Counted from the first letter of the stretch, positions 31,645 through 34,792 are shown. The stretch is 64,000 nucleotides of DNA from Arcobacteraceae bacterium (GCA_963678335.1 OY782822.1:1868838-1932837); one strand, 5' to 3'. The notes: generated by a model not told the origin, from the letters alone. Numbers and translations are program-made.

Positions 31645-32004
31645 TAAAGTAAGTTTATCTAAAAAGGCTTGAAAAAGTGCAACTATTCAAGTTCAAGCTG
31701 CATCAGGAACATATCCTACCTCGTACGCAGATCTATAAATCCTATGGTTAAGGCATTTAATTTTTGATAGTTTATCAAAACATAGCTTTTTGGGTAGTTT
31801 TATATAACTTTTTCAGAAAAATTATACCACTTATAACTATTTTGCTTTAAATAGATTTATCACCTGGGAGAGAAATATTTTATCTCTTATTACAAATAAA
31901 TACCAATATATAAGGGCTTTTAAATGATTAAAACCTTTTCTGATTAGTAAATATTTGTTTTGTTTGGTCTCAATGTGGTCACATTGAATAATCTTTCCAT
32001 TATT

Positions 32005-34530
32005 TTAATCATTGAAATATTTTTCAAGTTCTTCTGACTCTTCCAATGAAGAATAATTTTGCTTCAATGCACTAATTTTAACACTCTCAAGATCTTCTAA
32101 ATATTTCTTATTTACTTCCTCCATGACATCATAGTCAGTATGAAAATTAAAAAGTTCTTTTTCATTTTTTTCTTGTTGATATAAATACTGAATAAAAGAG
32201 TTTGTTTTTTCTACCCTATAAATCATTCGCTGACCCCTTTTCCCTGTAGAGAAAAGTTTATATTCATTATTTGCAGAGTTTGCAATAAAATTTGCAGTTT
32301 GTTCATCGTATAAACTGCAATCTGTACAAATCAAATCTAAATAAGTAAAAAAGTGTATCAACTTTTCAATAAAATATTTTCCAAATGGAGTGATAATGAT
32401 TTCTTCAACCTCTTTTTCATAAGTATCGAGCTTGATATCAGCTTCAATAAGTTTATACTTCATTAATTCTTCAATGTTATTATTAAAGTCCTCTTCCATA
32501 TTGAATATAGATATAAAATCTGTTTTTAAAATTGATAACTTATGATAATTTGTACTATTTCTATTTAAATATTTTAAAATTCTTATTGATGTAAAATGCG
32601 AACCATTTTCTAGATAGCGTAATTTAAATATATTGGGAACAGCACTACTATCTTCTTCATAAAAATACTTTTTAGGTGTCATTAATGGTTTTAAAACTTG
32701 ATGAATTTGTAGAGTAAAAATATTTCTACTTGAAATCATTTCATATACATTTAAATAACCTGAAACAACTAGTTCTCTAAACAAGTCTAATGCTTTTCTC
32801 ATGTCTTTTTGAGCACATGAAATTAAAAATGTGTACAAATTAGATTTTTTATCAAAATCTTTTTTAAAAACTAATAAGTATTTTTTGATATTTTCTTTAG
32901 TGACTAATTCTTTGTTTTTGGGAATAATTTCTCTTGATTGAATTAATTTATCAAAGAATTTTTCATTCTCTAAAGAGTCAATTATATACTGAAGTCTTTG
33001 CTTAAAAACTTTATCTGCTTGTGGAGATGAAATATGATATTGCATTGTAGCATAAGCATCTAAAACTCCTAAATTTTTTGAACGAAAAAATCTCTCTTCT
33101 CTAATAGTTATAAATGATAGTGTATTAATACTATCAAAAATTTCAGCAACTACTTGGAAACTAAAGTCTTGAATTTCTTGAGAAAACTGGTCGGTATTGT
33201 CAACAACTAAAACCACCTCTTGATTTTTCATCTCTCTCAAGTAATTAATAAGCTTTTGTGATAATTTTAGGTAATCACTTAGCATTTCTTTTATCTTATC
33301 CTCTAGTTTCATACCATAAATTTCACTTCCTTCTTTATAAAGAGAAGCAATCTGTTTCTTATAAACTTCAAATTCTTCAGGAAAAAGTATATTTTGTATA
33401 GCTTGATAATCATTACGTAAATTATCCACATCAATTTGATCTAATACATGTTGCCAAATATAATTTTTTAATTCTGACTGAAAGTTCTCACTTGGAGCAA
33501 ATTTTAATAGGTCTATATAAATAGTGTATAGTTTTTCACGTACATTTAAAGGAATATCTGCATTAATTAATTTTCTAATAAATGTTGATTTTCCACATCC
33601 TCGATCACCATATATCACGACAATATGTTTATTATCACTATACTCCAAAAAGTTAGTAATTTTTTTTGTTAATTTTTTAGATAACTTATCTCTTGTAGTT
33701 CCAATTACACCATGATTTTCTAAATATGGTGTAACATTATCTACAATCATTGAACTTAATGTATTCTTTGTATTTTCATACTTTCCCTCATCAACATAAC
33801 AATGACTTAAAAAATCAATATCATCATTATCAAAATCACTAAAATAATATTGTATTGCACCAGATATATATTGTGCATAAACATTTAAATCAACGGGAGC
33901 AGCAAATGAATTAATTTTGCTTTTTATAAAATACGTTATTCGTGAAGTGTTTTGATTCTTATGTAATATATTTTGCAAGCTTTTGTGATTAATAACTTGA
34001 TTATAATTTAATAAGTTATATGCTTCAGTAAAGTCTTCTGAAAAATACTTTAGATTATTTATTACTAGTGCATGTTTTTCTTCCCAGTTTTGACTAAATG
34101 CTATAAAAAAAATCCACACATGACCATTCGTTATGGCACCATAAGAAGTTCCTGTTTCTAAACAATATCCTCTTACTTGTTCTAAAGCACTTTTAATAGA
34201 AGTATTTGTTAAAAGAGTTTTTACTTTTATAAAAGACTTATGTGAATTAGTATGATTTGGTGTGTCAAAGTAGATTCCTTCTTTTTTAGCCTCGATAATT
34301 AATACTTTTTCTTCTAAAATATTCTTTATTGTATAATCAGTATAGCCTTTTTTATTAGATTCCTCAGCAATTACAGCATTTTTTGGATAAGATAAAATGT
34401 CATAAAGTACGGTATCTATAATTCTACTTCTTGTAGTCGCTTCATTTAAATTTGAAGTATCCATATCTAATGAATTAATCAAGTTTATAGCATTTTCATG
34501 TTGTTCCATAGTAATCACAATCCTTTTCAA
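32005..34530 (-). CDS. Orphan fusion protein: N-terminal HsdR_N/Mrr-like PD-(D/E)xK nuclease domain, P-loop NTPase (STAND/NACHT- or ORC-like), then a helical C-terminal region. Candidate defence protein.
   Basis: 841 aa.
- Nuclease-like region: NEATTRSRIIDTVLYDIL ... GYTDYTI ... VLIIEAKKEG ... SYGAITNGHVWIFF (D65, E80, K82).
- Walker A: VVIYGDRGCGKSTFIRKLI (aa 304-322).
- Walker B-like: EVVLVVDNTDQF (aa 438-449).

The gene is monocistronic, with 360-nt and 262-nt AT-rich flanks, and looks more AT-rich by eye than its neighbours. Confidence 0.6.
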   Translation of the reverse strand: MKRIVITMEQHENAINLINSLDMDTSNLNEATTRSRIIDTVLYDILSYPKNAVIAEESNKKGYTDYTIKNILEEKVLIIEAKKEGIYFDTPNHTNSHKSFIKVKTLLTNTSIKSALEQVRGYCLETGTSYGAITNGHVWIFFIAFSQNWEEKHALVINNLKYFSEDFTEAYNLLNYNQVINHKSLQNILHKNQNTSRITYFIKSKINSFAAPVDLNVYAQYISGAIQYYFSDFDNDDIDFLSHCYVDEGKYENTKNTLSSMIVDNVTPYLENHGVIGTTRDKLSKKLTKKITNFLEYSDNKHIVVIYGDRGCGKSTFIRKLINADIPLNVREKLYTIYIDLLKFAPSENFQSELKNYIWQHVLDQIDVDNLRNDYQAIQNILFPEEFEVYKKQIASLYKEGSEIYGMKLEDKIKEMLSDYLKLSQKLINYLREMKNQEVVLVVDNTDQFSQEIQDFSFQVVAEIFDSINTLSFITIREERFFRSKNLGVLDAYATMQYHISSPQADKVFKQRLQYIIDSLENEKFFDKLIQSREIIPKNKELVTKENIKKYLLVFKKDFDKKSNLYTFLISCAQKDMRKALDLFRELVVSGYLNVYEMISSRNIFTLQIHQVLKPLMTPKKYFYEEDSSAVPNIFKLRYLENGSHFTSIRILKYLNRNSTNYHKLSILKTDFISIFNMEEDFNNNIEELMKYKLIEADIKLDTYEKEVEEIIITPFGKYFIEKLIHFFTYLDLICTDCSLYDEQTANFIANSANNEYKLFSTGKRGQRMIYRVEKTNSFIQYLYQQEKNEKELFNFHTDYDVMEEVNKKYLEDLESVKISALKQNYSSLEESEELEKYFND

Positions 34531-34768
34531 TAAAAATTTATTATATAATGCTTTTAATTAAACTATTGTTTTAATTCATATTAAAATAATTACTCTAGAG
34601 AATAGACATAATTATAACTAAAAGAAATATCACTACCACTAATGACCAAATTATGATTGATCTGTCACTATAATATAATAAAGACTTTTTCCTCTTTTAA
34701 TAAAAATACAACCTAAATAATAATTTATACAACCTTTTAATAATTTTTATATATTTTGAAATTTAAAG

Positions 34769-34790
34769 AACCCCTTTGTTAAGGGTTTTT
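34769..34790 (-). terminator. Weak hairpin terminator after hypA
   Basis: The minus strand reads AAAAACCC-ttaacaaag-GGGTT-cttt, immediately after the hypA stop. The stem is short (5 bp). Confidence 0.3.
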
Positions 34791-34792
34791 AT

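Follow-up and report, generated by a model that had tools for sequence, protein, structure and literature searches.

A compact nuclease-NTPase gene in a variable slot of an Arcobacteraceae genome: a candidate single-gene defence system

Comparison with described systems

Antiviral Avs (AVAST) proteins, such as those with a Cap4-like (Avs2) or Mrr-like (Avs4) nuclease, carry on one chain an N-terminal PD-(D/E)xK-type nuclease and then a nucleoside triphosphatase (NTPase) of the STAND-like type with helical and winged-helix domains; they are located in variable islands, and ligand-gated oligomerisation is expected to activate the nuclease. A similar arrangement and location, and by expectation the same logic, apply to a protein of 834 amino acids (aa) encoded on the minus strand of a 64,000-nucleotide (nt) stretch of DNA from an Arcobacteraceae bacterium (GCA_963678335.1 OY782822.1:1868838-1932837), here called the window. 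We assign a probability of about 0.6 to the reading that this nuclease-NTPase gene acts alone in defending against phages or other mobile DNA and is carried as stand-alone mobile cargo, in which an NTP switch gates the nuclease.

The window protein differs from Avs proteins in several respects. It is about half their size and has neither tetratricopeptide (TPR) nor other repeat sensors, with ~120 aa past the winged helix; ~340 aa follow the NTPase core, ~220 of them forming a lid and the winged helix, and no repeat domain was found (an Avs sensor, which binds a phage protein, is TPR-like and usually has 400 aa or more). Its best fold matches are Cdc6/Orc1 rather than NLR or Avs proteins, its nuclease is of the HsdR / Type IIG type, and no Avs1-5 or bNACHT model in PADLOC v2.0.0 matches it. 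A first-pass annotation, made from the sequence alone, had likened the protein to the Avs/bNACHT type; the expected logic is indeed shared, while membership fails for want of a large repeat sensor and of a model match. For bNACHT, the NACHT domain (PF05729) scores 20.8 bits against a cut-off of 26.7, and was found in 8/57 diverse relatives at E≤1e-3.

Defence ATPases of the clade of the origin recognition complex (ORC) and Cdc6 (BrxC/PglY, BrxD and DUF499) have the same AAA+ core, in which strand 2 is followed by a helical insert, and the same matches to the Cdc6/Orc1 fold. In BrxC-type ATPases a C-terminal helical bundle is followed by a winged helix-turn-helix (wHTH), and BrxC ends in a coiled coil (PMC12839542); the window protein resembles the whole group in the bundle and wHTH, and BrxC in its coiled-coil-like end. 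The predicted structure (AAA+ core, lid and winged helix, with the best likeness to Cdc6/Orc1) would place it in this clade. However, the described ATPases are parts of multi-gene, methylation-based systems without a nuclease, whereas the window protein is stand-alone and nuclease-fused. BrxC/PglY of BREX was rejected, there being no BrxC model match and no BREX gene neighbourhood.

The N-terminal nuclease, with its motif set D, ExK, QxxxY and TNG, is shared with HsdR and with Type IIG/IIL enzymes (BpuSI, DrdV, MmeI-like), which differ in having a superfamily 2 (SF2) motor, methyltransferase or specificity module. Membership of Type I HsdR was rejected: the nuclease motifs are present, but there is no helicase domain and no conserved HsdM/HsdS neighbour. 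Septu (PtuA/PtuB), Gabija and OLD also couple an NTPase to a nuclease, and a Septu-type ATPase fills the same slot in the closest relative (L088). Their ATPases are of the ABC type (AAA_15/AAA_21), combined with HNH or Toprim, whereas here an AAA+/STAND NTPase and a PD-(D/E)xK nuclease share a single chain; Septu/OLD-type ATPases were rejected as the family. Other rejected candidates are KAP NTPase / Tmn (KAP_NTPase is a weak match, found in 9/57 relatives, and the insert consists of soluble helices in the model, with no transmembrane insert), a TnsA/TnsC-like transposition module (no transposase, no conserved neighbours) and MADS mad8 (match limited to the P-loop stretch).

Domain architecture, family and genomic contexts

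An unbroken minus-strand open reading frame (ORF), 32005..34530, is present in the window; from the TTG at 34530 it would yield 841 aa, the length given in the first-pass annotation. The start in all homologues, and in an identical database copy (P0001, 834 aa), is the ATG seven codons 3' of this TTG, so the real gene is 32005..34509 and encodes 834 aa. Residue numbers follow the 841-aa version throughout.

We consider with high confidence that the protein combines a PD-(D/E)xK nuclease with an AAA+ NTPase of the ORC/Cdc6-STAND type. Pfam, profile comparison, structure prediction and Foldseek agree on the N-terminal nuclease of the HsdR_N type, as proposed at first. Among the 57 relatives, HSDR_N_2 is found in 19/57 and HSDR_N in 8/57, and a profile of the first 200 residues matches the HsdR fragment 3h1t (E=2.5e-5) exactly across D-Y, E-A-K and QxxxY...TNG. 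The AlphaFold2 (AF2) model of the domain (predicted local distance difference test, pLDDT, 90.4; predicted template modelling score, pTM, 0.86) has the canonical alpha-beta-beta-beta-alpha-beta-beta topology; strand 2 contains D65, and strand 3 ends in E80-x-K82. Foldseek ranks nuclease domains of Type IIG/IIL enzymes highest for this model (BpuSI, 1.3e-4, then DrdV and BsaXI), with Cas4 and HsdR coming next. Conserved residues comprise E30/T33/R34..I38-D39, E56, D65-Y66, E80-A-K82, Q118..Y122 and T134-N-G136. These and the NTPase motifs are invariant or nearly so across 33-57 homologues with identity down to ~20%, far beyond chance; every motif picked out by eye in the first pass (nuclease pattern, P-loop, Walker B) is among them. 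The active site of the nuclease and the NTPase motifs are both intact.

The NTPase is recognised from the family rather than from the single protein. Searched alone, the protein gives sub-threshold P-loop matches in Pfam (ATPase_2, AAA_16, NPHP3_N, NACHT), but no match to its N-terminus; PADLOC, NCBIfam and PDB sequences add nothing beyond the sub-threshold P-loop. Pfam across the 57 relatives finds AAA_16 in 39/57, AAA_22 in 31/57, nSTAND_NTPase5 in 14/57, KAP in 9/57 and NACHT in the eight mentioned above, with the NACHT, NB-ARC and nSTAND matches mostly under curated cut-offs. A full-length family profile yields generic P-loop matches only against PDB sequences, and a fold search of BFVD generic AAA+/RFC/KAP matches only. 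With the full-length model (pLDDT 84.7), Foldseek places archaeal Cdc6/Orc1 at the top (2qby_A 1.1e-6, 1fnn_A), with eukaryotic ORC4/5 and Cdc6 ranking next and CED-4 and Apaf-1 after them; alignments to Cdc6/Orc1 and CED-4 cover ~460-530 columns, corresponding to NTPase, lid and winged helix. The first-pass call of a STAND/ORC-like P-loop NTPase is borne out by Pfam across the family and by these folds.

Its traits are mixed. An Arg at the sensor-1 position is STAND-like (R477 would occupy the STAND-type sensor-1 Arg position), and the (G/K)DxRxAL motif of the lid is ORC/Cdc6-like; from established AAA+ knowledge, we take the lid motif (K/G)D-x-R578-x-AL-x-x-F to resemble the sensor-2 motif of ORC, Cdc6 and clamp loaders. 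No Cdc6 or ORC Pfam family matches, and the Walker B motif is D-N-x-D, not DE. In the model a helical insert of ~95 aa follows strand 2 of the NTPase core, which is a hallmark of the ORC/Cdc6-STAND group (PMC12839542). The ~390 aa of helical sequence read earlier as a possible sensor or wHTH region are mostly the lid (~105 aa) and winged helix (~115 aa) of the NTPase module, leaving a helical tail of ~120 aa. This tail has conserved residues (Y730-x-D732, R772, F779, Y782, L783, E787) and no match in any profile library.

The protein belongs to a large family. A word-indexed search found 36 relatives, and an exhaustive search found 1,359 representatives of clusters (defined at 50% identity) at E≤1e-3, a number that falls to 873 with a cut-off of 1e-10 and to 282 with 1e-30. 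At least 873 of the clusters share an architecture of ~820-850 aa; relatives are nearly all 790-880 aa long and collinear with the query. Given a family of this size and fixed architecture, the gene is not the orphan it was called at first. Database names of homologues are generic ('hypothetical', 'ATP-binding', 'P-loop NTPase fold protein', 'predicted type IV restriction endonuclease/GTPase SAR1 family'). A pattern-seeded scan with one genome per species found relatives in at least 138 of 185,579 genomes (~0.07%, a lower bound), in a patchy phyletic pattern across at least nine phyla (Alpha-/Beta-/Gammaproteobacteria, Bacteroidota, Verrucomicrobiota, Planctomycetota, Cyanobacteriota, Campylobacterota, Desulfobacterota, Acidobacteriota, Actinomycetota).

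PADLOC v2.0.0, run on the window protein, the 57 relatives and four more distant relatives, returned weak partial matches only (the mad8 P-loop stretch, the N-terminal nuclease-like region of DrmMI, PD_DExK and a Type IIG REase); the initial view that no named system fits has therefore held. A literature search by the domain pair, COG4748/PF13588 and five accessions found no paper describing the family. A 2026 survey distinguished 589 STAND clades in prokaryotes, counted 198 as defence-associated and limited its analysis of sensors to C-terminal regions of at least 400 aa (PMC13581612); the family may be among the clades surveyed there.

Composition sets the gene apart from its surroundings. 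Its GC content is 25.6% and its GC content at third codon positions (GC3) 16.0%, against a GC3 of 39-49% in the flanking genes (the gene of a 326-aa protein, fetB, LOG, hypA, hypE); whole-window GC is 36.8%, and the islet holding the gene ranks within the 11 lowest-GC of 612 sliding 2.8-kb windows. What had been judged by eye, that the gene is more AT-rich than both neighbours, is thereby confirmed by calculation. The gene lies between hypA and the 326-aa gene, and related genomes have other cargo there. The closest relative (L088, 86% identity) has the order hypD-hypE-hypA-[584-aa ATPase]-326aa-fetB-LOG; in the next relative (L089, 76%) the slot is filled by a 1733-aa + 342-aa pair (1513-7743), and in a more distant one (L090) a phage-type integrase and an N6/N4 DNA methyltransferase come next after hypA. 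The slot between hypA and the 326-aa gene is a hotspot of variable cargo. It had been suggested that hypA and its neighbour might be adjacent where the nuclease-NTPase gene is missing; the gene is indeed absent from the slot in L088 and L089, but other cargo lies between the two.

Relatives are also found on mobile elements. They are carried by 30 plasmids, 14 of them conjugative, and single copies lie in a region resembling an integrative and conjugative element (ICE) with integrase, recombinase and an ISNCY element, inside a nest of IS3, IS66 and IS21 elements, and in a prophage remnant adjoining mug. Of 5,426 complete E. coli genomes, 10 (0.18%) carry a distant collinear branch (24% identity, E=9e-34) as a reverse-oriented moron of Rac-like prophages, located between replication genes and the nin/Q region; it would be a practical starting point for experiments. 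When four genes on each side were clustered for 79 loci, none of the neighbour families was shared by more than 4 loci, so the gene travels alone; intergenic gaps around relatives are typically 150-200 bp. With its low GC3, variable slot, lack of recurrent partner genes and plasmid carriage, the gene is horizontally acquired, stand-alone cargo of foreign composition in a variable genomic slot, as first proposed. In two of the E. coli Rac-like prophages (L094, L095; 10001-12451) an 816-aa 'P-loop NTPase fold protein' is encoded between ydaU/ydaV/DUF977 and DUF1367/DUF1364/DUF1133.

Proposed mechanism and rival explanations

The hotspot, plasmids, prophage moron and nearby defence genes together make it quite probable that this is a defence or exclusion gene. 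A local parallel is provided by other AT-rich islets of the window, one with a PIN/VapB pair and another encoding a Septu-like ATPase together with an HNH protein. We infer the role in defence, the behaviour of the NTPase as a switch, the activation of the nuclease through oligomerisation and the kind of trigger; on balance the following course of events seems likely. At rest, the NTPase module would hold the protein in an inactive state, as a monomer or dimer; an invader-derived cue binding the winged-helix / C-terminal part would permit NTP-dependent oligomerisation, which would unite the nuclease domains and lead to DNA cutting. Cleavage by nucleases of the HsdR / Type IIG/IIL class requires several enzyme molecules to cooperate.

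As to the trigger, a DNA or nucleoprotein cue is slightly favoured over a phage protein. The similarity to Cdc6/Orc1, the lack of a repeat sensor, the even conservation and, by analogy, the ORC/Cdc6 + wHTH ATPases of DNA-sensing systems may point to the former, and the STAND-like traits and total absence of a methyltransferase to Avs-like protein sensing with abortive infection. A more far-reaching proposal is a distinct, compact and stand-alone class of immune nuclease without a methyltransferase, neither an Avs-type receptor nor a known restriction type. In it, invader DNA or a replication/packaging intermediate would be sensed directly by an ORC/Cdc6-like switch and its winged helix, and assembly on that DNA would fire a restriction-type nuclease; we hold this only tentatively and think it rather unlikely.

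Several observations weigh against defence by a switch-gated nuclease. Effector swapping and hypervariable sensors are common in immune STANDs. A profile of the NTPase and C-terminal part alone has 563 matches, the best 120 of which are of the same length and have an HSDR_N N-terminus where annotated; unlike in Avs, no effector swapping is seen among these 120. No part of the protein is hypervariable, its sensor region included, and none of the domains is evolving more rapidly than the NTPase (mean pairwise identity: nuclease 0.33, NTPase 0.27, lid 0.27, winged helix 0.28, helical tail 0.26). The D-N-x-D Walker B is without the usual catalytic Glu, which suggests slow turnover and makes the hydrolysis rate and 'switch' behaviour guesses. 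No relative was found in viral collections (2.9 M viral contigs, and 50,697 phage records by tblastn), and the lack of any PADLOC system or curated name that fits the protein or its relatives also counts here.

Evidence from neighbouring genes is likewise divided. Proteins within 3.5 kb of relatives (145 sampled, 45 loci) match 219 PADLOC families at E≤1e-10, and an equal number of proteins at least 6 kb away match 70, a crude comparison in that families rather than loci are counted and the proteins are sampled. The nearby matches include Type IIG and Type II restriction-modification (R-M), SIR2-HerA, MzaE, PD-Lambda-5, Old, PDC-S06 and HEC-08. At least 6 bona fide systems in the 45 loci, set against the 1.5% background given in the STAND survey (PMC13581612), correspond to a binomial P of ~6e-5, which is rough because the tool reports families, not loci. 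Many homologue loci lie amid housekeeping genes (RNR, GyrA, MetRS, LigA), so that the association with defence islands is partial: the enrichment near defence genes that the first pass proposed to look for appears in the crude near and far counts, but many loci have ordinary surroundings.

Among the alternatives, we have considered an ATP-dependent restriction enzyme that recognises modification or structure (Type IV-like), whose winged helix and tail bind foreign DNA and whose ORC-like assembly licenses cleavage of the invader only, with no protein ligand and no abortive infection. It would account for the best fold matches being DNA-binding initiators, for a nuclease class that is that of DNA-bound R-M enzymes, for uniform conservation along the C-terminal half and for the lack of a methyltransferase partner in the 79 loci, as expected for Type IV; ORC/Cdc6 + wHTH ATPases are moreover a recurrent chassis in DNA-sensing defence, e.g., BrxC and DUF499 (PMC12839542). 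Some homologues are named 'predicted type IV restriction endonuclease' in their sources, but those names go back to the COG4748/HSDR_N domain alone. Pfam scans of the protein and 57 relatives found no domain that reads modified DNA (SRA, YTH, DUF3427 or similar), and the Arg at the sensor-1 position, the nSTAND5/NACHT matches and the CED-4/Apaf-1 folds suggest ligand-gated oligomerisation instead; we therefore regard a Type IV-like enzyme as possible and worth keeping in mind, yet improbable.

Carriage on plasmids, an ICE, IS nests and prophages, proximity to toxin-antitoxin (TA) pairs and spread as a single gene to many unrelated sites are also what one would see of a selfish or maintenance module of mobile elements, serving post-segregational killing, exclusion of competing plasmids/prophages or, as a nuclease, its own spread, with no role in host defence. 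The gene is not accompanied by an antitoxin-like partner, a recombinase or terminal repeats, however, and many chromosomal copies have no mobile-element genes nearby; excluding rival elements would in practice be the same activity as defence. We judge such a module decidedly less plausible than a Type IV-like enzyme. A housekeeping role in the repair, replication or recombination of DNA, with the protein as an ORC/Cdc6-like loader joined to a nuclease, has the fold likeness to Cdc6/ORC, RFC and TnsC in its favour, and one homologue adjoins ligA, but it is close to refuted by the rarity of the gene (at least ~0.07% of genomes across species, 0.18% within E. coli), its patchy phyletic pattern, foreign composition and variable sites, and its replacement by unrelated cargo in the closest relatives.

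If it is indeed a defence gene, the nuclease-NTPase gene adds a small one-gene immune nuclease (~2.5 kb), from a family present in tractable bacteria (Vibrio, Pseudomonas, Burkholderia, Serratia, E. coli prophages). The family stands at the boundary of ORC/Cdc6 initiator-like ATPases and STAND receptors and could show a minimal NTP switch gating a restriction-type nuclease where neither a repeat sensor nor a methyltransferase is present; for finding more systems, the slot between hypA and the 326-aa gene offers a ready hotspot, and the 1733-aa + 342-aa pair is one further candidate found there. Effector-NTPase fusions already form a well-populated category, and the 198 defence-associated clades of the survey may include this family (PMC13581612). 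We regard the protein as a compact variant of known effector-NTPase logic, a solid and readily testable candidate that would come as no surprise to specialists.

The islet, its borders and other genes of the window

Features of the gene, its islet and the surrounding DNA are listed in Table 1. The gene is flanked by 360 nt (31645-32004) and 283 nt (34510-34792; GC 19%), the latter being 262 nt if the TTG start were used. Of the long AT-rich flanks of 360 and 262 nt reported at first, the former stands and the latter becomes 283 nt with the ATG start, but neither length is wholly islet DNA. DNA alignment shows that ~220 nt upstream of the ATG of the 326-aa gene and ~110-120 nt past the hypA stop are conserved in relatives without the nuclease-NTPase gene; because these flanking stretches are shared with relatives carrying other cargo, the cargo itself is placed at ~31870-34685. 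Direct or inverted repeats and att-like sites were sought around the islet, with short AT-rich chance matches only.

Table 1. Positions of the nuclease-NTPase gene, its parts and nearby features (positions in the window; residues in 841-aa numbering)
Feature	Position	Strand	Evidence or remarks
Nuclease-NTPase gene	32005..34509	minus	start ATG 34509; stop codon 32005-32007; full-length alignment with homologues
PD-(D/E)xK nuclease domain, HsdR_N / Type IIG class, aa 8-165	34036..34509	minus	Pfam, profile, AF2 model, Foldseek
Catalytic core D65-Y66 ... E80-A-K82, strands beta2/beta3	34285..34338	minus	invariant in three family alignments; aligns to HsdR 3h1t D-Y / E-A-K
Helical linker, aa 166-295	33646..34035	minus	conserved N216 and C244-Y245; lowest model confidence ~aa 276-298
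P-loop NTPase core, aa 296-500	33031..33645	minus	Pfam, model secondary structure, Foldseek
Walker A GDRGCGKST, G308-x2-G311-x-G313-K314-S-T316	33583-33609	minus	invariant
Walker B VVLVVDNTDQ, hhhhD444-N-x-D447-Q448	33187-33216	minus	invariant
Sensor-1-like R477	33100-33102	minus	R477-E-E ends strand 4
Helical lid, aa 501-605 (~105 aa)	32716..33030	minus	invariant P503, R512 and motif (K/G)D-x-R578-x-AL-x-x-F
Winged-helix region, aa 606-720 (~115 aa)	32371..32715	minus	invariant H610, S644-H645-F646; three helices and beta-hairpin in model
C-terminal helical bundle / coiled-coil-like tail, aa 721-841 (~120 aa)	32008..32370	minus	long helices in model
Cargo-specific AT-rich islet, ~2.8 kb, in hypA / 326-aa-gene slot	31870..34685	.	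GC 25.1%; borders by alignment with L088, L089
Islet-specific upstream region with presumed own promoter of the gene	34510..34685	minus	consensus match only
hypA intrinsic terminator; core-genome boundary element, not cargo	34769..34787	minus	conserved in L088
Conserved promoter and leader of 326-aa/fetB/LOG operon; core genome, not cargo	31645..31869	minus	nearly invariant in window, L088, L089
Small ATP-dependent DNA-ligase-like gene	38268-39068	minus	between hypD and hypE
VapB-like/PIN toxin-antitoxin pair	37889-38134, 37465-37896	minus	between hypD and hypE
386-aa ORF	36282-37442	minus	GC3 11%; no Pfam or PADLOC match

A candidate promoter of the gene (TTAAAA-17-TATATT, 34700-34672) does not match the consensus better than expected from shuffled sequence, and no intrinsic terminator was detected downstream of the gene; its monocistronic status is plausible. 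FetB/UPF0014, LOG, HypA and HypE were identified by Pfam, in agreement with the first reading of the neighbours as fetB, LOG and hyp genes, and the hypA terminator was located. The 326-aa neighbour is conserved in Campylobacterota and has no Pfam match, leaving its 'ACAD-like' label unsupported.

The operon of the 326-aa gene, fetB and LOG has a promoter with the extended -10 TGGTATAAT near 31826 and then a leader of ~185 nt. This region (31645-31869 in the window, 7775-8000 in L088 and 7744-8000 in L089) is almost invariant, while the proteins of the three genomes are only 76-86% identical. Rfam has no match over 31500-35000, which includes the leader, and the conserved leader is not predicted to fold more stably than shuffled versions of it (z = -1.3). 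The region may be a regulatory element that acts in cis and has yet to be described.

The 584-aa ATPase of L088 (6020-7774) is a lone PtuA-like protein (AAA_15/AAA_21; PADLOC PtuA 1.4e-30), with no separate HNH partner gene called adjoining it. The 1733-aa + 342-aa pair of L089 has no Pfam or PADLOC match and is another candidate system in the hotspot. L090 is rearranged over 7632-16975, with hypD, a MazG-like gene, the 326-aa gene, LOG, hypE, a beta-CASP/MBL gene, a Na/Pi transporter and hypA.

Other parts of the window also carry inserted or AT-rich DNA. The hyp operon is split a second time (36271-39157, minus), with four genes between hypD (39158-40279) and hypE (35281-36270); an AT-rich islet with the PIN/VapB pair and the 386-aa ORF spans 36.3-38.1 kb, and hypD-hypE-hypA are contiguous in L088. 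A third AT-rich islet (59717-62459, minus; GC ~0.235) encodes a 604-aa AAA_15/AAA_21 ATPase and then a 313-aa protein with a weak, sub-threshold match to HNH nucleases (E 3.7e-4), a Septu (PtuA/PtuB)-like pair by its architecture.

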